A stretch of DNA of 63,980 nucleotides, filler included, from a bacterium (GTDB taxonomy: Bacteria; UBA9089; CG2-30-40-21; SBAY01): the NCBI GenBank assembly GCA_040757115.1. It is 24 parts of 24 records of this genome, joined end to end, with 100 filler letters (N's around TTAATTAATTAA, not from the genome) between each part and the next. Parts side by side here need not be neighbours in the genome. Positions count along the whole stretch, not along the records: positions 5,996 to 29,312 come from JBFLYA010000041.1; 23 more parts are not named here. One strand, 5' to 3'. A program made the translations under genes and the position numbers. Position 1 is the first letter of the stretch. Each line of letters starts with the position of its first letter. Below the pieces are notes generated by a model. That model saw only the letters and a list, made by a program, of their open reading frames with translations, was not told the DNA's origin and made no database searches. Shown here piece after piece: positions 17,797 to 59,042 of this stretch.

Positions 17797-18418
17797 GGTG
17801 GTGTCTGAAAATAACTCTAATAGTGAAATCTATGCAGATTTGGTGTCCAAAAGGGATTTCATCCAAAAGAGCAAAATGCAAAACTCGTTTATAGTTTATG
17901 GTTTATAGTTTATGGTTTATAGTCCTTCAACTATAACCTATCTACTATCAACTATAAACTATCTTTGCCAAAGTTCAGTAAAATTATCTCTTTCCTTTCA
18001 GCGTTAAAATACTTGTAACTGTTCAGATAGTAATTCACCGCAGAGACGCAGAGAAACAGAAAGGAAAATATCTTTTTTTTCGTGTTTTTCGGTGTTTAAA
18101 AAAGTTTAAAAACAGTTAGGTGAAAGTAAGTATTAAAAGATTAATAAACAACGAAAGACCCGAAATGCACAAAAAAAGGAAATTTCTGTCTCTGGTGAAT
18201 AGATTTTAATTTTTTCTCTGCGTCTCTGTGGCATCTTGCGGTGAACGGTTACAAATACTTGAAGTCCTTTTTGAAATTTGATTTGTAATTTTGCATTTTG
18301 ATATTTATATTTGATATTTAATATCTGATATTTAATATTTATTTGTTGTCTCCCTCAAATCCTATTTTGCAGAACCCTATACACTATTTTAACCTTTATG
18401 CTAGATTAAGACACCACC
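17797..18418. mobile_element. Composite nested MITE: family C ends enclose family B sequence, which encloses a family A element
   Basis: GGTGGTGTCT...AGACACCACC outer ends. B right TIR at 18366-18379. A element at 18015-18252. Confidence 0.8.
18015..18252. mobile_element. MITE family A, complete, with 8-bp TSD
   Basis: TIRs GTAACTGTTCA / TGAACGGTTAC. AAATACTT is duplicated at 18007-18014 and 18253-18260. Confidence 0.88.
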
Positions 18419-23415: not shown

Positions 23416-23641
23416 CAGAAAAAATAATACTCGATGTTCAAGTTTTTTAAAGATATAAAGATTTAACCGCAAAGAGCGCAAAGGAAGATTTCGCAAAGGA
23501 CGCAAAGAAAGGGAAATTACGGGACGGGGAAGGGTTCAGGTAGGATAAAAATAAGGAGAAAGGGAGAAGATGGAGAAGTGGAGAAAAGAAGAGTTAACTG
23601 ATAGGATTATTAATGCCTGTATTAATGTCCATCAAAAGTTA

Positions 23642-23818
23642 GTGTCGTGTTGAACAAATAACGCACGGAATTCGATTCTGGTAACTGGTGATTGGTAACT
23701 GGTAATTAAATACCGTTTGGCTGATCTCAGGACGAAACTATTTAACCAGTTACCAATTATCCGTTTACAGGTTATGGGATCTGATGATACGCCGTGCAAA
23801 ACTTACTCAACACCACAT
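23642..23818. mobile_element. MITE with TA target duplication
   Basis: Imperfect ~27-bp TIRs GTGTCGTGTTGAA..GCACGG / CCGTGC..CTCAACACCACAT. Excision restores the codons AAG TTA GGA. Confidence 0.8.
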
Positions 23819-23960
23819 TAGGACCTGGTTTTCTGGAGAGCATCTATCACAATGCCTTGAGGGTTGAGTTTGCAAGACAGAACATTATCTTTGAATCAGA
23901 AAAAGAAGTCAAGATATTCTATCAAGGTGTTGAGGTTGGGATTCATAGACTTGATCTTTT

Positions 23961-24144
23961 CGACCTGTGCGGTTAAATGTAAAATGGATAATGTAAAATG
24001 AGAAATGTAAAATGAAAATGTATAACTGAAAGGTAATGAGTCTGGCGAAGTAGTAAAATTTCCCATTTTTCATTTCCTATTTTACATTTTACATTTATTT
24101 TTCCTTTGCGTCTCTGCGATGAATTAGTCTAATCGCACAGGTGG
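23961..24144. mobile_element. MITE with 8-bp TSD (similar ends near 5862 and 60556)
   Basis: TIRs CGACCTGTGCGGTTA / TAATCGCACAGGTGG. GATCTTTT is duplicated at 23953-23960 and 24145-24152. Confidence 0.88.
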
Positions 24145-24462
24145 GATCTTTTTGTTGAAGATGAGATTGTGGTAGAGATTAAAACTGTTGAGGAGAGAAG
24201 TGGGAAGTATTATAATCAGGTTAGATCATACATTAGAGCAGTGGATAAAGAAATTAGGGTTACTGGTAAATTTCGCAGACTCCAGGATTGATGTCCGAAG
24301 GGTGGAGCAAGAAAAAGTTTGAGCCAATTCTCCCTTTTCCCCATTTCTCCTTGTTTACACTTCTAATGTATAGCCCTGAACGGTTACAAAAATCCGTTAT
24401 ATCCGTCTAATCCGATTACTAAAAAATTAAACTAATTAAACTAATGAGGAGGTAGATTTAAA

Positions 24463-25368
24463 ATGGGTAAAAGAAGTTTAAAGGAAAATTCAAGAGGAAC
24501 AAGGATTAAGAAGATAATGTGTAGCATTGGGGTGATGTGTATCTTGCTGGGCAGTAGCACTATAGCCCAGGGTATAGAATGGCAGTGGCCATGGTTAAAA
24601 AGTAAGGAGCAAAAGACTAAGCAGGAAAAGGTGGTTAAAAAGAAAAATCTACCACTTAGAGCAAAACAAATCGGCACGCCGACTGTTCAGGCATTGGTGG
24701 ATAAAGTCAAGGAGAATTACCAGAAGATTCAAGATTTGAAGGCAGAGATGGTAGTTACAGTAGAAAAAGTAGGAGGATGGGGGTACCCAATACTTACAGA
24801 TAAGATTACTAAGGCAGGAAAATATTACTTTAAAGCACCTGATAAAATTAAATATGAAGACCCAAAAGACCATGATAGAGATACTGTTTGGAAGGGATTA
24901 ACTCAGTATGTTAGAGCTTATCATGGCTCAAATGTTCCAAGTACTAGAGAACCTTGGTATTCTCTTTTAGAGCCTGATAATCTATATTTCTACTGGCGGT
25001 TGGATGAGATAATGACTAAGTTTGATACGAAGGTGATTGATAATCCTCAACCTGATGTCTGGGTGATTGAGGCGGTGCCGAAAGATAGTAATCATGAGGA
25101 TGATTATAATTATCCATATTCAGATGGTAGATTGGAAGTTTTTGTTAATTATGATAAAGGCGTGATTACTAAAATTGATGTACACGGTATTACTCTTGGT
25201 TTGCTTTCTTCCCGAAGAGAATCCCAAGATTTTACATTAATTAATAATATTTGGATACCAACAAAATTTATTAGGACATCTTTTGGAGATAAAGAGGTAA
25301 AAGAAGAAATAACACTTAGCAATATACAGTTAAATACTGGTATTCCAGATAGCGAGTTTGAGTTTTAG
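24463..25368 (+). CDS. LolA-like (outer-membrane lipoprotein-sorting) fold protein
   Basis: Signal peptide, YQKIQDLKA, YFKAPDKIKYE and C-terminal IQLNTGIPDSEFEF. Confidence 0.7.
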   Translation: MGKRSLKENSRGTRIKKIMCSIGVMCILLGSSTIAQGIEWQWPWLKSKEQKTKQEKVVKKKNLPLRAKQIGTPTVQALVDKVKENYQKIQDLKAEMVVTVEKVGGWGYPILTDKITKAGKYYFKAPDKIKYEDPKDHDRDTVWKGLTQYVRAYHGSNVPSTREPWYSLLEPDNLYFYWRLDEIMTKFDTKVIDNPQPDVWVIEAVPKDSNHEDDYNYPYSDGRLEVFVNYDKGVITKIDVHGITLGLLSSRRESQDFTLINNIWIPTKFIRTSFGDKEVKEEITLSNIQLNTGIPDSEFEF

Positions 25369-25423
25369 CAGGAGTAGAAAGTAGAGAGTAGAAAGTAGAA
25401 AGTTTTAAGGAGGTAAAATAATT

Positions 25424-26220
25424 ATGTTTAAAAGAGTTATAGCCTTATGTTTGGTAAGTAGTTTATTTTGGTTAAGTCCTGCTTTTGCTAAAAATCCTGT
25501 GTTGATAGTTCATGGACTCAATGGAGATTCACAGAGTTTTAAAGATGGATGTATGGTAAAGACATTACAAAATGCAGGACTACAGGTGTTTACCTTAGCA
25601 GATGTAGGTGGTGATTTTCCTAATAGAGGACAAGGATTAATACAGGAAGATGTAAAATTGCTTAAACAAGCAATAGATGAAGTTAAGAGGCGAACAGGAG
25701 CAACTAAAGTTGATATAGTAGCCCATTCAAGAGGTGGTATTGTAGCTGAACTTTATACGATGATGTATGGTAATCAGTATCAACCTACAATGGAATATAC
25801 ATATCATCCACCTGAGGATCCTCGGCTATTAAAGAAGAAGACCATCACCAACATCCCCCGCTACGGCAATGATGTCAATCAAATCATTATGATGGGGACA
25901 CCGCAGATGGGGAGTTTTTGGTCGGATTTTGGGCATGATAATCCTGTTCTTTCTGACCAACTTAGAAAACTTGGGATTGCTAAGGATGCACCTGATCAAT
26001 ATACAGTAGGTGTAGAGCAATTGCAGGAAGAAGGTAGTGCCTTTATGGAATATTTCTGGAAGAATAAATTAAATTCAGACCTACCAACGATTACTTATAT
26101 TAATTTAGCTGAGGATAGGATTTGCCCACCATTGTTTAAATAGGGTGATGGTGTAGTTACTTTTGATTCTGCCTGTGGGGTGGAATTACTTCAACAATTG
26201 CTTTTTGGACGCAGATGAAC
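25424..26220 (+). pseudogene. Secreted alpha/beta-hydrolase (lipase/PGAP1-like) with in-frame TAG at 26141-26143 and 3' truncation
   Basis: VHGLNG and AHSRGG motifs. Homology to the paralog continues in frame past the stop (GDGVVTFDSACGVELLQQLL). Confidence 0.75.
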
Positions 26221-26383
26221 GCAGATGAACACAGATTTTAAAGAAAAAATCACTTGCATTTAAAGATAAACAGGTGTATACTTTCTTTGCGGCCTTTGCG
26301 CCTTGGCGTGAAAAAAAAAGAGACTCTCACGCAAAGACGCAAAGAGAAAGAAGGGAAATCTATTTGAGGAGGTAAAAAAAACA

Positions 26384-27277
26384 ATGTGTAATCTAAAAGG
26401 TTTAAAGGAAAATTCAAGAGGGACAGGGATTAAGACCATAATGTGTAGCATTGCGGTGATATGTGTTTTGCTATGCAGTAGCACTATAGCCCAGGGTATA
26501 GAATGGCAGTGGCCATGGCTAAAAGCTAAGGAGCAAAAGACGAAGCAAGAAAAAGTGGTTAAAAAGAAAAATCTACAACTTAAACCAAAACAAATCGGCA
26601 CGCCGACTGTCCAGGCATTACTGGATAAGGTCAAGGAGAATTACCAGAAGATTCAAGACTTGAAGGCGGATGTGGCAGCAAAAGCAGAATGTACACCTAG
26701 CCCACCATTGCCAGGTTTGTATACCGTTAACATGAAGTGGTACTTTAAAGCACCAGATAAGCTTAAAATGGTTCCTCCTAATGAGAAGAGAAGAACTATT
26801 GTGAAAAATAATACCAAGTATACCCTTCACCTAAGATGGGGGAAATGGGAAATTGATTCTAAACCACTTTATTGGTATTATTTATTAGACCCGGGTAGGT
26901 TTGATTTCTACTGGCGGCTGGATGAAATAATAACTAAATTCGATACCAAAGTCATCAACCACCCAGAAGAAAATATCTGGGTCATTGAGGCTGTGCCGAA
27001 AAAAAGTAATCCTGAGGATGATTATAATTATCCTTTGCCAAGAGTTGGATTAGAGATTTATATTGATTATGAAAAAGGAGTAATGACAAAAATTGTTGAT
27101 TTTGATGCAAAAACTGGAGAAAAGGATACTCCATGGTGTGAAATTAAAGATTTTAAATTGATTAGTAATATTTGGGTACCAACAAAATTTATAAAAATTA
27201 CAGAATCAACAGAGGAAATCACACTTTCTGACATTCAACTAAACATTGGTATTCCAGATAGTGAATTTGAATTTTAG
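26384..27277 (+). CDS. LolA-like fold protein; paralog of 24463-25368
   Basis: Near-identical N-terminal ~90 aa, FYWRLDEI block and C-terminus. Confidence 0.7.
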   Translation: MCNLKGLKENSRGTGIKTIMCSIAVICVLLCSSTIAQGIEWQWPWLKAKEQKTKQEKVVKKKNLQLKPKQIGTPTVQALLDKVKENYQKIQDLKADVAAKAECTPSPPLPGLYTVNMKWYFKAPDKLKMVPPNEKRRTIVKNNTKYTLHLRWGKWEIDSKPLYWYYLLDPGRFDFYWRLDEIITKFDTKVINHPEENIWVIEAVPKKSNPEDDYNYPLPRVGLEIYIDYEKGVMTKIVDFDAKTGEKDTPWCEIKDFKLISNIWVPTKFIKITESTEEITLSDIQLNIGIPDSEFEF

Positions 27278-27301
27278 TTTAACTTTTTGGAGGTGATAAT
27301 T

Positions 27302-29107
27302 ATGTTAGCAAAAAAGGTAGCCTTATGTTTGATTCTTAACTTATTGTGGTCAAGCATTGCTTTTGCAAAGTACCCAGTGCTTATTCTTCCAGGAATTAAT
27401 AGCACTTCACAAGATATGAAGGATGGATGTTTAGTAACCACATTGAAAAATGCGGGGATAGATGTATTTACTATGGCGGATGTAGGTAAAGAGTTTTTGA
27501 ATCGTGGACAGGGATTGATTCAAGAAGATGTGAAATTACTTAAGCAGGCAATTGATGAAGTAAAGAGACGAACAGGGAGTGATAAGGTGGATATAGTCGC
27601 TTACTCAAGAGGTGGACTGGTTGCTGAACTTTATACTATGATGTATGGAAATCAATACCAATCTACAATGGAGTATACATATTATCCTGCTGGAGTTAAA
27701 AGAGAAGAAAGATTTAAAAAAACTAAGACCATCTCCAACATCCCCCGCTATGGCAACGACATCAATCAAATCATCATGCTGGGCGCACCAAATAAGGGGA
27801 GTTTTGGGGCAAATGTGGCGTATAGTCTACCTTGGTTGGCTAACTTGGTTGATGAGATTGCTAATATATTTGGCCATGACCCGCCGGATGCTGATACTGT
27901 GGGAATGGAACAATTACGCACTTCGAATAACTTTATGACCTATTTCTGGCAAAAGGCACTAAATCCTGAAGTTCCTAAAGTCAAATACATTAATCTGGCT
28001 GAAGATAGGATAGATAATGGTGATGGAGTAGTATCTTTTGATTCTGCTAAAGGGGTAGAATTACATCAACAATTATTAGAAACTATCGCATTGAGTACCT
28101 TAAATATTCCATCTGTCCATCATACAAATTTATTCAAAGATGTAGGTGTCAAGAAGGAGATATTACAAGAAGAATTTGATGCTTACCCTATCACTGCCAA
28201 TATCTCTATCTTAAGGGAATCTCCTGTCAGAGAAGGGGCAATATCTATCTCTATTACCTTATCCGAATCTTTATCTTCAGCACCAACACTATTTATTAAA
28301 GGTAACGGTGCTTTTTCTTCTCCACATCCAATATCTTTAGCCGGCTCGGGTAAGAACTTCTCTGTAATCTTGAATATTTCCAAAGGGACTGACGGCAGCG
28401 CAAGGCTTTATTTTGAGGAGAAAACACAAATGCAGGTAAAGATAGCCAGTGCTGATTGTAAAGAAGATATTATTGAAACTATTGAAGTACCAATATCAGG
28501 CTACCATTCCTTTTTAATTGACACCGAGGAGCCGGAGGTAACTGCTACTACCCCAGCAAATGGTGAGGTGATTATTGCTGAGGAGACACCCTGGACAGTC
28601 AATATCTCTGCTACGCTTTTTGACCCACCAGTTAACAGCTATGCCTCCGGGATTGATAATTCAACTATTGTATTGAATACTCCTCAAGGAACCTTTCATC
28701 AAGCATCAGCAGTGAATAATTTAGATTACGGTGAGTATTCTTGCTCAATTGAAGCAAAGGATAATGCCAATACACCAGGACATGACTTGAAAGGGTCTCC
28801 TTATCGCTGGAGTTTTGAGATTGTGCCACCTATCTTTGTATCTATCCATCCTGCCTGGCAGGATTTTACAGAGCCACATGAATCCCATACTCATTACATC
28901 ACTATCACTAACAAGGCAAAGAATAAGTCTTTTACGGCTAATATTGAGATGAAACTGATTAGGGCATCAAAATGCCTTTCTATCACTCAATATCCTGCTT
29001 CTACCTTAGAATTACCTGCAAATAGCGAAAAATCAACCTCATTTGTAGTTACCTCAGGTGAGGAATTAATACCAGATGATAATTTGATTCATCAAATAAA
29101 GGTGTAA
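27302..29107 (+). CDS. Secreted alpha/beta-hydrolase with C-terminal Ig-like domains
   Basis: AYSRGG nucleophile elbow, GDGVV and HHTNL (candidate triad), then beta-rich domains. Confidence 0.75.
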   Translation: MLAKKVALCLILNLLWSSIAFAKYPVLILPGINSTSQDMKDGCLVTTLKNAGIDVFTMADVGKEFLNRGQGLIQEDVKLLKQAIDEVKRRTGSDKVDIVAYSRGGLVAELYTMMYGNQYQSTMEYTYYPAGVKREERFKKTKTISNIPRYGNDINQIIMLGAPNKGSFGANVAYSLPWLANLVDEIANIFGHDPPDADTVGMEQLRTSNNFMTYFWQKALNPEVPKVKYINLAEDRIDNGDGVVSFDSAKGVELHQQLLETIALSTLNIPSVHHTNLFKDVGVKKEILQEEFDAYPITANISILRESPVREGAISISITLSESLSSAPTLFIKGNGAFSSPHPISLAGSGKNFSVILNISKGTDGSARLYFEEKTQMQVKIASADCKEDIIETIEVPISGYHSFLIDTEEPEVTATTPANGEVIIAEETPWTVNISATLFDPPVNSYASGIDNSTIVLNTPQGTFHQASAVNNLDYGEYSCSIEAKDNANTPGHDLKGSPYRWSFEIVPPIFVSIHPAWQDFTEPHESHTHYITITNKAKNKSFTANIEMKLIRASKCLSITQYPASTLELPANSEKSTSFVVTSGEELIPDDNLIHQIKV

Positions 29108-31467: not shown

Positions 31468-32289
31468 ATGAGAATAAAAGTAACTTATAGAACTCATAAA
31501 TTACCTATACTTTACCGCCATAGATTTATGGCTTTAATAAAAGAGGCATTGAAAACCTCAGATGAAGGCTATAAAAAATACCTCTACCCTGCCAAAGATT
31601 CTAATGAGTCAAAGAGAACAAAGCCATTCACCTTCAATGTATCTTTACCAGCCCAAAGAACAGCCCAAAAAGAGATAATTCCCATAGATGAAGATTATAA
31701 GGTACCCATAGAGGATACGGTTTTCTACTTCCCGCCGGAGAGCTCACTTTCCCTTTATATTAGTTCAGCTGATTACCAATTCATTATTAATCTCTACAAC
31801 GGACTCCTCTCCCTGAAGGAGTTTGCTTTCAACCCAGAGGTAACTCTTAGATTGGAAAGGGTATTTATGCTCAACGAACACCAGATTACCACGGATGAGG
31901 TAGTATTCAAGACCAATTCACCGGTATCTATGGAGACTAAAGATGATATACCGATATTGCCATTTAGGGATGACGGGGAGCCGCTTGGAGAAGAAGGGTT
32001 AAAAATATTTAACCAGCACTTCAATGCTATTCACAACAGAATCTTAAAGGATATAAGGGGGCAGGAACTATTGAGGGAGATAGAATTCACCCCATTGAAT
32101 TTACGCAAACAGGTGGTAAAGCATACCTTAAAGGGCTTCAGAGAAAAGACAGGGAAGCCCTACATGAATCTGACCACCTTTCAAGGTTGTTTTAAGCTAA
32201 AGGGTGCACCAGAGGACCTTCAGACGCTTTACCAGATAGGTGTTGGCTTAAGAACAGGCCAGGGGTTTGGGATGGTGGAGGTGGGGTAA
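31468..32289 (+). CDS. cas6: CRISPR-associated endoribonuclease Cas6
   Basis: KPFTF motif and C-terminal G-rich loop GVGLRTGQGFG. Confidence 0.92.
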   Translation: MRIKVTYRTHKLPILYRHRFMALIKEALKTSDEGYKKYLYPAKDSNESKRTKPFTFNVSLPAQRTAQKEIIPIDEDYKVPIEDTVFYFPPESSLSLYISSADYQFIINLYNGLLSLKEFAFNPEVTLRLERVFMLNEHQITTDEVVFKTNSPVSMETKDDIPILPFRDDGEPLGEEGLKIFNQHFNAIHNRILKDIRGQELLREIEFTPLNLRKQVVKHTLKGFREKTGKPYMNLTTFQGCFKLKGAPEDLQTLYQIGVGLRTGQGFGMVEVG

Positions 32290-37028: not shown

Positions 37029-37080
37029 AAACGATTTAATGCTTCAGCTTAAGCCTAATGCAAACAAAGGAAAGAACCTA

Positions 37081-38124
37081 ATGAATTCATTTAAAAGAAC
37101 AGAGAAAGAGATAGATTTGCCTTTAGGGGCTGTTTGGCTTATGAATTCTATATCAGAATATAAGGGAAAACAGGAGCTCTATAAGAAACAATCGTCTCAG
37201 ATTATTAATAGCCTTGTTGAAATGGCATTAATAGAAAGTGCTGAATCATCAAATCGTATTGAAGGTGTAACCGTAGAGAGAAAAAGGCTCAAACCACTTA
37301 TCATAGATAGAACTAAACCTCGCGACAGGTCAGAAGAAGAAGTAGCAGGATACCGCAATGCCCTTGATTTGATTCACAAGAAATATAAAACTTTGGAGAT
37401 AACACCTATGACAATAAAAGAATTACATCGTTTAAGCCATGCAGAGACAGGCGACGCAGGTGAATGGAAGGAAATAAACAACGATATTATAAGAAAAAAT
37501 CCTGATGGCTCAGTTGAGGTAATTTTTAAGCCTGTAGATGCTAAGGATACACCCGCCGCAATAGAAGAACTATGTCTTTTATATAGACATAGTCTTGACC
37601 AGATGAAATACCCCCCGCTTTATGCTGTTGGTTGTCTTATACTGGATTTTTTATGTATCCACCCATTTCGTGATGGGAATGGTAGGGTATCACGGCTACT
37701 TACTCTTCTGGTATTATATCATCACGGCTATGAAGTTGGAAGATATATCAGCCTTGAACGCATCATAGAGCAATCCAAAGAAACATATTACGAAGCCCTG
37801 CAGAAAAGCTCTTTAAAATGGCATGAGGTAAAGCACGATATTTCACCGTGGCTGCATTATTTTTTAGGAACTGTCCATTCTGCCTATAAGGAATTTGAAC
37901 AAAGGGCGAGTAGCATTAAATCGACCAAAGGGGCAAAGACAGAAATAGTGATGCAAATGATAAACAGCCAGCAAGGCGAGTTCTCTATGTCTGATATTGA
38001 ACGATTATGCCCTGGTATAAGTAGAGATATGATTCGCCTTCTCTTCAGACAGATGAAGAAAGAAGGGAAAATCACCTGCCTGGGTAAGGGACAGTCAGCT
38101 AAATGGAAACGAATAGGGGAATAA
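37081..38124 (+). CDS. Fic family protein with C-terminal HTH
   Basis: HPFRDGNGRVSR active site and SNRIEG motif. Confidence 0.92.
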   Translation: MNSFKRTEKEIDLPLGAVWLMNSISEYKGKQELYKKQSSQIINSLVEMALIESAESSNRIEGVTVERKRLKPLIIDRTKPRDRSEEEVAGYRNALDLIHKKYKTLEITPMTIKELHRLSHAETGDAGEWKEINNDIIRKNPDGSVEVIFKPVDAKDTPAAIEELCLLYRHSLDQMKYPPLYAVGCLILDFLCIHPFRDGNGRVSRLLTLLVLYHHGYEVGRYISLERIIEQSKETYYEALQKSSLKWHEVKHDISPWLHYFLGTVHSAYKEFEQRASSIKSTKGAKTEIVMQMINSQQGEFSMSDIERLCPGISRDMIRLLFRQMKKEGKITCLGKGQSAKWKRIGE

Positions 38125-44258: not shown

Positions 44259-45548
44259 ATGGCTTTTCAATCATGGCTCATACCACCTGAAGAATTAACA
44301 CAAGATAGACTTCAAAGATATACATCTCTGTTTTCTCAGCTCAATACACAACCAATTAGAGATTCTGTCTCTATTGTAGGACGTCCACCCCTTTCACGCC
44401 CATCTCTATTAAGGGCGCTTATATACAAAAATATTCGCTGCTTCCCTTCCCTAACAGAGCTTGTCATTGAACTTAAAGAAAATCCTCTTATCGCTGAGCG
44501 CTGTGGTTTTGATCTCTGGTCCAATCTTCCTAATGTAGAGAGATTCTCTGCCTTCCTTAGGGATACGCCCAACTACTTATTTCAAGAAATAAGAAGTAAC
44601 CTTGTCTTCCAATTGGTAGAATTAGAAGAGATATCGGGAAAATATCTGGTTACTGATTCTTGTCCCATTAAGGCAAATGTCAAAGAGAATAACCCCAAGA
44701 CAGTGATTAAAGATCGTTTTGATAAGACCAAATACCCAAAGGGTGATAAAGACTCCCGACTGGGAGTTATTGTTACCTTCCCCACCCCAAGCAAAAAGAA
44801 GATCGAATATTTTTGGGGATATCGTAATCACGTCATCTCGGATGCCATCTCCGAATTACCCGTAGCTGAAATAACAAAACCAGCCAATGTCTCTGAGGTC
44901 TCTCTCTTCATCCCTCAGTGTAGAAGGCTACAAGAGATATTTCATTTTCCAATTAATGCCGTAGCTGCTGACTCCCTTTTAGACTCAGCCACTATTATTG
45001 AATTCATTGTCAAAGAGCTTAAAGCTAAACCAGTCATTGCTAAAAATCCAAGGGCATCTAATAGAACAGATATTACTCTTTCCTTAAAAGGCATCCCCAT
45101 ATGTATCGCTGGTTTCCATATGCTCTCCAGGGGTAAGTTCAAAGATAAGAAACAGAATCGGATACGCCATAAGTTTGTCTGTCCAATCAAAGGTTCCAAG
45201 AAATTTGCTAAAGAGCAACCCTATTGTCCTTGGTGGCATCCAAAGTTCATAAATGGGAATGGATGTATAACCTATCTCAGAGTAGATGTCGATGAATCTA
45301 TTCGCAGAACTATTGATTATGGCAGCGAAGAGTTCAAAAAGATATATAATCTAAGAACAGGTGCTGAAAGAATCTTCTCCCGTCTATTAGCAATTTCTAT
45401 GCAGGAACCAACTGTCAAAGGACTTAATGCTACTGCCAATATCTGCACTATAGCTCATATCACTGTACTTTCTGTCGCCTTAACCGCTGTGAGAAGTGAC
45501 CAAGTAGATAAAATCAGATTCGTTAAATCGCTAATCCCAAATCTTTAA
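44259..45548 (+). mobile_element. DDE transposase (IS1182/IS5-like)
   Basis: GRPP N-terminus, TDSCPI, WGYRNH, AADS and YNLRTGAERIFSRL motifs. Confidence 0.85.
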
Positions 45549-47431: not shown

Positions 47432-47577
47432 GTAACTATTCACCACGAAGGGTACGGAGAGCACGAAGTGAAATTTGATGAATTATCGAATAGAGTCATT
47501 GGATGCGCTATAGCGGTGCATCGAACTCTTGGGCCAGGTTTGCTTGACACCGTGAATTGTGAATGGTGAATAGTTAC
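47432..47577. mobile_element. Family A MITE nested in an A1 element, carrying a GxxExxY 5' fragment, with 8-bp TSD
   Basis: TIRs GTAACTATTCACCA / TGGTGAATAGTTAC. CAATTTTT is duplicated. From 47468 it encodes MKFDELSNRVIGCAIAVHRTLGPGLL. Confidence 0.88.
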
Positions 47578-57487: not shown

Positions 57488-59042
57488 CTGTAGTTTGGCA
57501 AATTTCCCATTTCTCTAATGAGAAATAGGGTGGTCTGATTCATCAGACACGCTTGCTAATAAATGCTGAGACATATTATAAAGGAACCTATAAAAAATTG
57601 ACGTGAAAGCCTTTTTGGAGTAAAATATTATTGCGAAATAATATTACCCAAAGGAGGACTTTCACGTGTTAAAGATTATAGCACCTTCAAAAGCATTAGT
57701 CAAATTTTTTTTCATGTTGAATTTAAGTATGAGCAAACCCCAGAGGGAACATGCTCTCAACACAATGGAAACACTAATTATGTGTGAATCAAGGAAAACC
57801 ATATCAAACCTTAATAGGACGATTTGCGACAGTACTGACCAGTCAGCGATGTCAGATTTCTTTACTTACAGTCCCTGGGAAAATGATACCGTCAGACGGC
57901 AAACAATAAAGTCACTTATCCGATGGTCTGTAGAACAAAACCAGCTCCAGATGTTTCAACCAACTGTAATAATATCAATAGACGATTCTCTTGCAAGGAA
58001 ACCAAAAGAGAGTAAGCATTTTGACACTGTTGACTGGCATCATGACGCACACGGGCAGAAACAACTTGCTCATGGATTATCATTTATGACATGCCACATA
58101 CAAATAGGCGACGTTTCAATTCCAATAAATTACAGGATATATCTCAAAGCAGAAACTATAAGGAAACTGAACAGGAAGTATAGAAACAAGCAAAAAATCA
58201 AATTCGCTACCAAGATAGAATTAGCCAAAGAAATGCTTGAAGAAATAGCAGAGCATTTACCTCAAGAATTCAAGATATACGTTCTTTTTGATTCATGGTA
58301 TGCAGCAAAGAAACTAATAAAGTATTGCAGGGCAAACGGATGGCACGTAATATGTGCCCTTAAGTCTAACCGTAAGTTTAACGGTAAAAAGTTAGCCAGG
58401 ATTGCCCGCCACATCAGGCACAGGAGATTCACTAAGACAATAGTGAACTCTGCAGATTCAGTATCTATTTACTGGGTCTACGAAAAGATAGGCCGAATCA
58501 ACGGTCTTGATGAAGAAGTAAAAGTCTTCATCTCAAAACGGCACCGCTCCGATAAATTCGGAGAGTTCTTCCTGTGTACAGACACAGAGATGTCTGCCAG
58601 GCAAGCACTGTCTTTCTATACGAAACGCTGGGCAATTGAGGTAGATTACTTATACCTTAAGACACGGTTAGGGCTTGAAGACTTCCGCCTGCGGTCCTAT
58701 AAGGGTATTGTCAAGTTCATGCAGCTGGTGTTTCTTACTCTTCAGTATCTGCACTGGCGTATTCATGAAGAACACAGTCCACCTGTAAAAAAATTGACTG
58801 ATGTTATTGCTCTTCACCGAACCCAACAGTGGCAGAATACTCTGTTTAGCTTCGCTCATCAGGTATTAAAACACAGGAGTATTAAAATACCTGTAGATAA
58901 TTTCCTAGCGAAAGCTGCTTGACTTAACTATTCATAGGAATTGTTCAGGTTTCTTGTGCATCCCTGTTTTACAGGGTTATTCCATTTTTGTCAATGAACA
59001 ATATGTTTCAACATTTATTAGCAAAAATTTGCCAAACTACAG
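57488..59042 (+). mobile_element. Complete insertion sequence (IS701-like)
   Basis: Perfect 18-bp TIRs CTGTAGTTTGGCAAATTT / AAATTTGCCAAACTACAG. The contig is exactly the IS. Confidence 0.92.
57666..58922 (+). CDS. IS701-like DDE transposase
   Basis: SIDDS, FDSWY, LKSNR and RWAIEV...LK..LGL motifs. Confidence 0.9.
   Translation: MLKIIAPSKALVKFFFMLNLSMSKPQREHALNTMETLIMCESRKTISNLNRTICDSTDQSAMSDFFTYSPWENDTVRRQTIKSLIRWSVEQNQLQMFQPTVIISIDDSLARKPKESKHFDTVDWHHDAHGQKQLAHGLSFMTCHIQIGDVSIPINYRIYLKAETIRKLNRKYRNKQKIKFATKIELAKEMLEEIAEHLPQEFKIYVLFDSWYAAKKLIKYCRANGWHVICALKSNRKFNGKKLARIARHIRHRRFTKTIVNSADSVSIYWVYEKIGRINGLDEEVKVFISKRHRSDKFGEFFLCTDTEMSARQALSFYTKRWAIEVDYLYLKTRLGLEDFRLRSYKGIVKFMQLVFLTLQYLHWRIHEEHSPPVKKLTDVIALHRTQQWQNTLFSFAHQVLKHRSIKIPVDNFLAKAA

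Follow-up and report, generated by a model that had tools for sequence, protein, structure and literature searches.

The window analysed in this work, a stretch of 63,980 nucleotides, is composed of 24 contigs joined through linkers, and on one of them (G000:C345) the remains of a GxxExxY nuclease gene lie between two short terminal sequences at 23528-24387. The locus raises the question of whether the gene is the cargo of a mobile element, as an earlier note on this DNA proposed, and, if it is, where the ends come from and what the nuclease does inside them. The genome (G000) is metagenome-assembled, of 4.3 Mb in 462 contigs, and holds 67 PF13366 matches. The reading that we favour, with a probability of roughly 85%, is a two-layered one: a GxxExxY gene with its own inverted arms forms a cassette that sits within IS66 ends, is presumably copied by an IS66 transposase acting in trans, and decays to MITEs. 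This reading accounts for the dozens of scattered, often broken GxxExxY copies in the genome, and it separates two questions, that of the outer IS66 shell and that of the inner cassette.

Anatomy of the copy in the window

The copy and its immediate flanks contain the following features.

23430..23517, + strand: orphan D-type left end and arm, standing where the original left flank was
23528..24387, + strand: decayed, non-autonomous IS66-ended element with a GxxExxY cassette; 860 bp, intact form 496 bp
23528..23544, + strand: left end, resembling the right end of the C198 IS66 (15/17 in the intact sibling)
23545..23587, + strand: 5′ purine-rich cassette arm, overlapping the start codon and pairing with the 3′ arm; limits approximate
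23570..24322, + strand: GxxExxY pseudogene (PF13366, TIGR04256) with two inserts and one extra base at 24254
23643..23817, no strand: nested MITE C, 175 bp, with the 4-bp duplication TTAG at 23639-23642 and 23818-23821
23961..24144, no strand: nested MITE B, 184 bp, with the 8-bp duplication GATCTTTT at 23953-23960 and 24145-24152
24324..24360, + strand: 3′ pyrimidine-rich cassette arm, 8 bp shorter than that of the sibling
24361..24387, + strand: right end, whose last 13 bases are those of the left end of the C198 IS66
24388..24436, + strand: right half of a hairpin without a gene, probably the target of the insertion; the whole hairpin is found at G000:C55 before a paralogous gene

The copy is placed between two protein genes, and of the 488 bases that align with an intact sibling (G000:C68:24650-25145) 479 are identical; its left end differs from the family end by one base, the second (23529). 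With the inserts removed, the GxxExxY frame runs from the ATG at 23570 to the stop at 24320-24322, the extra base at 24254 being a frameshift. Two pieces of the gene pass the PF13366 cut-off of 22 (48.3 and 27.6 bits) and two short pieces give no match. The earlier note was thus right in placing the gene between two family ends, and also in reporting no target-site duplication (TSD) here: 7 of the 8 positions mismatch, since the left flank has been lost. The partner of the missing left duplication was not found; the end of C201 has the right 8-mer but an unrelated flank. Most likely the copy inserted into the loop of the gene-less hairpin, and a later deletion or rearrangement would have joined its left end to the D-type arm, removing the left duplication. 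D-type elements are another GxxExxY cassette family, with a 5-bp duplication; no IS family was assigned to their ends. None of the listed read contigs spans the left junction (23518-23528), so an assembly join is possible there. In the congener G001 an orthologous empty site for this copy was sought, and the comparison was dropped because the upstream TPR gene there precedes another gene and synteny is broken.

The ends of MITE C are shared with an IS1182-like element on C185, a weak assignment with an NF033551 match under its cut-off; this element (L136, G000:C185:2223-4968) is 2746 bp long and has its transposase split across two frames. The end type of MITE B is also found behind IS6/IS256-like transposase genes, these being weak family matches. 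Several copies have MITE C at one shared 4-bp site within the GxxExxY gene, in either orientation (C345, C112, C174 and C356 in one, C415 and C51 in the other), and MITE B occupies the identical 8-bp site in C75, a copy without MITE C. These shared sites could stem from hot spots of insertion, from inversion or from recombination among copies.

Downstream, at 24463-29107, there are two tandem pairs of similar genes, the first consisting of a weak LolA-like match and an alpha/beta hydrolase, with paralogues that have near-identical 5′ ends on C55 and in G001. Elsewhere in the window a Cas6 gene (31468-32289) and a Fic-domain gene (37039-38124) each stand on their own short contig, and two transposase genes, an IS701 one above cut-off (57666-58922) and an IS1182/IS5-like one (44259-45548), lack ends of types A to D in the flanks inspected. 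Three read-contig sets from one study hold the stretch; the best is labelled a groundwater metagenome and may be the source sample, and runs X2 and X3 hold small shares. The joints in these contigs that skip each insert agree with the uninterrupted siblings and are not independent support.

IS66-type ends and movement as a unit

The 13-mer of the right end occurs 17 times in the window with at most two mismatches, against 0.46 expected. Genome-wide the 12-base end pattern (A-type ends) was found 1380 times and its reversed control 15 times; the pattern far exceeds this control in most of 24 other genomes of the phylum and is near it in five of six genomes from outside the phylum. An exact 8-bp duplication bounds 139 of the 679 inward-facing end pairs that are at most 3 kb apart (7 bp in three, 6 bp in two), and an 8-bp duplication with at most one mismatch bounds 146 of 365 adjacent pairs.

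An insertion sequence with the same terminal inverted repeat is present at C198:3061-4623. It is a 1563-bp element with A ends and a single IS66 transposase frame, but this frame carries two stops and the element has no TSD. The 3′ end of the GxxExxY element agrees with its left end at 13 of 13 positions, and the 5′ end of the sibling with its right end at 15 of 17. Of six PF03050 matches in G000 this one is full-length and same-ended, and an intact same-ended IS66 was not found in the 462-contig assembly, from which it may be missing. Open single-ORF IS66 transposases with A-type ends exist in G007 and G008, and such ends are found on IS66 also in G019; a TSD was seen at none of three complete IS66 elements in relatives. 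ISDge4, an IS66 of the ISBst12 group, is described with similar ends and an 8-bp repeat (PMC12898284), so that end type and duplication length are common to both, the parent elements having a single-ORF transposase. In contrast to ISBst12-group elements, the GxxExxY element keeps only about 13-27 terminal bases and no transposase. On sequence grounds we regard it as a non-autonomous derivative of an ISBst12-group IS66, which would be mobilised in trans.

Twenty loci of the element's family are present in G000; nine have both ends and four of the nine have an exact 8-bp TSD. From G001, 32 loci were taken from BLAST matches, and among the 17 with both ends and flanks the TSD is exact in nine and has a single mismatch in one more. 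Three orthologous empty sites were found between the two genomes, the 8-mer being single-copy in the unfilled one:

filled, full-length, at G000:C430; empty at G001:C759
filled at G001 L116; empty at G000 C409
filled at G001 L118; empty at G000 C298

The candidates L109, L120 and L123 sit within other repeats and were left uncounted, a different element occupies the site in the comparison of L112 with C451, and the flanks of C68 and C174 gave no usable empty site. Copies broken by a stop, a nested MITE or a deletion (C430, C51 and C174) are still bounded by perfect TSDs. At L109 (G001:C246:13200-16000) four nested layers were distinguished, from the outside inwards A1 MITE, D element, family element with its TSD, and MITE B.

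Inward A ends stand within 150 bp on both sides of seven of the 20 near-complete GxxExxY genes, against two of 575 control ORFs of 100-160 aa, and B ends were found for four of the 20 and none of the controls. Both control ORFs with A ends are four-helix-bundle genes (TIGR02436 for the one scanned). The Fisher value of 5e-10 for the A ends is overstated, because the seven genes, belonging to four lineages, are not independent. None of the other full G000 genes with both A ends (C460, C34, C178, C25 and C438) has a TSD, and none was found around A-ended GxxExxY genes outside the element's family (0 of 55 other genes). The TSDs, together with the enrichment and the empty sites found between the two genomes, bear out the earlier note's proposal of a non-autonomous element with terminal inverted repeats that carries GxxExxY and moves as a unit. 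Its view of family A as a class specific to GxxExxY does not hold: the same ends are found on four-helix genes and on gene-less hairpins, and GxxExxY genes mostly lack them and also occur within B or D ends.

The inner cassette and the short derivatives

Cassettes that have arms but no A, B or D ends make up 12 of the 17 full G001 genes, 16 of the 21 best-scoring loci of other genera and all five further GTDB loci. The purine-rich 5′ arm type is present in homologues without IS ends (L080, L082, L087 and L088); L080, the closest homologue outside (87 percent), shares the arm type of the element and lacks an IS end, and L022, which is as close, has a different IS66-type end. The record holding L080 is titled Marinifilum, far from the phylum, and represents either horizontal transfer or a misbinned contig. 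In a protein tree of 63 proteins, built on only 117 columns and excluding L081 (the same locus as L022), the partial L086-L089, all fragments and 113 further matches, the A-end label takes eight changes, seven of them forced by well-supported branches. One clade of 19 rows has A ends in 12 rows spanning two families, and therefore allows an old association with losses. Two subfamilies switch ends between genomes: both have B ends in G000, and A ends are seen in G004 for one and in G012 for the other.

The end-free cassette L105 (G001:C568) is present in G001 and absent from G000 (C415:16140-16310) and G005, and its site has an imperfect repeat of about 11 bp at the ribosome-binding site and no trace of IS66. 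G003 shares 97 percent identity with G001 here, more than would be expected from its rank. Another end-free cassette has shrunk in place to a gene-less hairpin, and three further sites bear different hairpins in G000 and G001. Judged by these comparisons, the cassette is older than its IS66-ended shell. We also put forward, tentatively and as something rather doubtful, that the GxxExxY gene and its arms are themselves a transposase-free selfish element, in which the Cas4-like nuclease would act on the arm hairpins, the cassette would enter near ribosome-binding sites with a short duplication, and the arms would acquire and mirror IS ends. If true, such armed cassettes would quite generally supply new MITE families to IS of unrelated families.

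The earlier note took the abundant short MITEs for deletion derivatives of the gene-bearing element, which is right for many of them and wrong for A1. GxxExxY coding remnants are retained in 56 of 162 TSD-bounded A elements (37 by blastn and 52 by tblastn; 1 and 0 in shuffled controls), six such elements keep four-helix remnants, and 106 of the 162 have no GxxExxY remnant. The A1 MITE, which the earlier note met in halves because the window joins contigs through linkers, is present in whole copies in G000; one cluster holds 32 of them, and none of the 32 has a GxxExxY coding remnant. The note had matched both ends of the window copy to subterminal A1 sequence; the shared stretch is real, but it concerns one end only, the subterminal part of 24361-24387 resembling one A1 end. 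The last 63 bases of A1 agree at 59 positions with a G004 GxxExxY element, over the 3′ arm and end of that element, and the A1 arms match a GxxExxY subfamily that bears B ends in G000. As the arms belong to this other subfamily, A1 probably derives from a different cassette, in which another hairpin has taken the place of the gene. A third cassette gave rise, by deletion, to the D-ended short elements.

Two gene-poor elements lie in the window itself. Of another GxxExxY gene, the A-ended element at 47432-47577 (146 bp) keeps no more than the initial two dozen codons, and it is one of about 16 similar TSD-bearing stubs that clustered together in the genome-wide grouping. The one at 18015-18252 is gene-less and A-ended, has an exact 8-bp duplication, and consists of GxxExxY-subfamily arms around another hairpin.

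These observations are consistent with the following course of events. The inner layer consists of a GxxExxY gene flanked by inverted short-repeat arms of its own and is widespread without IS ends; the outer layer would come from the short ends of a single-gene IS66 of the ISBst12 group. The cassette may have inserted near IS ends, or an IS may have landed beside a cassette, with a deletion following in each case. Once doubly ended, the cassette could be copied across the genome by the IS66 transposase in trans, leaving 8-bp duplications. Because the gene is not needed for this movement, selection on it would be relaxed, and stops, frameshifts, nested MITEs and internal deletions would accumulate; the long inverted arms may favour loss of the gene, and the shortened copies would spread onward as MITEs. 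Capture of this kind probably took place more than once, in several cassette lineages and with IS ends of three kinds.

The nuclease, rival readings and related systems

The intact sibling of 496 bp has a 126-aa GxxExxY protein as its sole ORF and no transposase gene. The protein scores 128 bits against TIGR04256 (cut-off 35) and, besides passing the profile cut-off, has the G-x-G-x-x-E-x-x-Y and D...E-x-K motifs, with D69, E79, K81 and Q93 invariant across 70 sequences. A promoter scan of the sibling gave two sites against 1.6 expected. The structure model (pLDDT 95.5) has a PD-(D/E)XK fold; the best Foldseek match is SSO0001 (E 9e-5, TM 0.58), and by VIA the model matches Cas4 with Z 8.2 (rmsd 3.5, 101 aligned), level with a restriction enzyme at 8.1. 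A sequence search against solved structures gave no real match. The model thus resembles Cas4 and restriction-type nucleases, and nuclease activity is predicted for its family. Cas4 has the four conserved cysteines of an iron-sulphur site. The RecB-like PD-(D/E)XK core of Cas4 is matched by the model, but GxxExxY has no cysteine in invariant or nearly invariant columns and the sibling protein contains a single one. In membership, invariant motifs and fold the protein agrees with the GxxExxY/PDDEXK_3 group (TIGR04256, PF13366), which PMC3424549 describes as of unknown function and subject to multiple transfers; compared with that group in general, the genes here are tied to inverted arms and partly to IS ends.

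The earlier note left it undecided whether the nuclease is a passenger or a mobility factor. Within the limits of a sequence comparison, it is a passenger of the outer IS66-ended shell, because broken copies have moved, A ends are also found around four-helix genes and GxxExxY within the ends of other IS types, and IS ends are absent from most related cassettes; nothing suggests that it drives the movement of the shell. The dN/dS ratio is 0.36-0.42 among the family copies and reaches 0.48 in the B-ended ones; 15 comparisons across lineages or genomes gave 0.04-0.15, one near-identical pair 0.23 and another A-ended subfamily 0.10. As the copies stay below 1 and the other A-ended subfamily is at 0.10, some copies may have been under selection, and the latter value tells against its complete loss.

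The invariant residues, the intact copies in the genome, the dN/dS below 1 and the restriction of the small cargo found to GxxExxY and four-helix genes would all suit a nuclease that helps to move A-ended elements, whether in cis or from intact copies in trans; it might, for instance, resolve intermediates or cut at the arms. We nevertheless think this unlikely: the ends and the 8-bp TSD are of IS66 type irrespective of the cargo, gene-less and four-helix elements show the same TSD, and the fold is like that of Cas4 and restriction-type nucleases. Quite unlikely, too, is a single ancient family of IS66-ended GxxExxY transposons of which the end-free cassettes are degraded copies and from which all short MITEs derive. 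It would explain the A ends on GxxExxY genes in G004, G006, G018, G022 and G024, with a remnant in G012, and the agreement of A1 with the G004 element. Yet the end-free cassettes are intact, in the majority and under strong purifying selection, L105, present in G001 and absent from G000 and G005, has a short repeat at its site and no trace of IS66, subfamilies with B ends in G000 have A ends in G004 or G012, and most of the TSD-bounded elements hold no GxxExxY remnant.

That the two ends are independent neighbouring insertions mimicking one element is extremely improbable. The missing TSD of the window copy and the crowding of the intergenic spaces, with 0.33 A ends per kb, could invite such a reading, which the earlier note itself had named as a way in which its proposal might fail; but across two genomes the same gene recurs at numerous unrelated loci with the same ends at the same distances, and TSDs and empty sites are seen among these loci. 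The empty sites refute it for the family, and the 479/488 identity to the sibling for the window copy.

The two-layered reading places the element among known systems. Mobile insertion cassettes (MICs) and IS-derived MITEs lack a transposase, have IS ends and are moved in trans by the cognate IS (PMC3129680; PMC9330008). The GxxExxY element shares with MICs the absence of a transposase, the IS ends, the target duplication, an unrelated gene inside and shorter gene-less derivatives, and is by definition a mobile insertion cassette of IS66 type with MITE derivatives. It differs from MICs in that the cargo is a gene-plus-arms cassette found also without IS ends, and in the several cassette lineages, three end types and several hundred derivatives in one genome. 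In tIS66 elements such as ISPa75-fosZ (PMC12888890), IS66 ends likewise hold a captured passenger gene, but the transposase genes are kept, which the GxxExxY element lacks. The outer layer is therefore ordinary IS66 biology, in which passenger capture is already known. No paper on GxxExxY genes carried by an IS, or on an armed GxxExxY cassette, was found in the openly accessible literature searched, which was seen in part; one passage found there under GxxExxY concerns a Cas4 mislabel.

This cargo is unusual and probably selfish, and the family offers a worked case of MITE origin, from the capture of a hairpin-armed cassette by IS ends through amplification to decay into short elements, every stage of which is seen in two congeneric genomes. 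The intact proteins, arms and empty sites named above provide handles on the function of a widespread uncharacterised nuclease family.

REP/RAYT systems and ORF-bearing rRNA intervening sequences likewise combine a small gene flanked by inverted repeats with hairpin copies that lack the gene. RAYT is an HUH (Y1) transposase, and an rRNA intervening sequence lies inside an rRNA gene and is excised from the RNA. GxxExxY, in contrast, is not an HUH transposase, being PD-(D/E)XK by Pfam, NCBIfam and fold, and the copies examined lie between or inside protein genes and not in rRNA genes.
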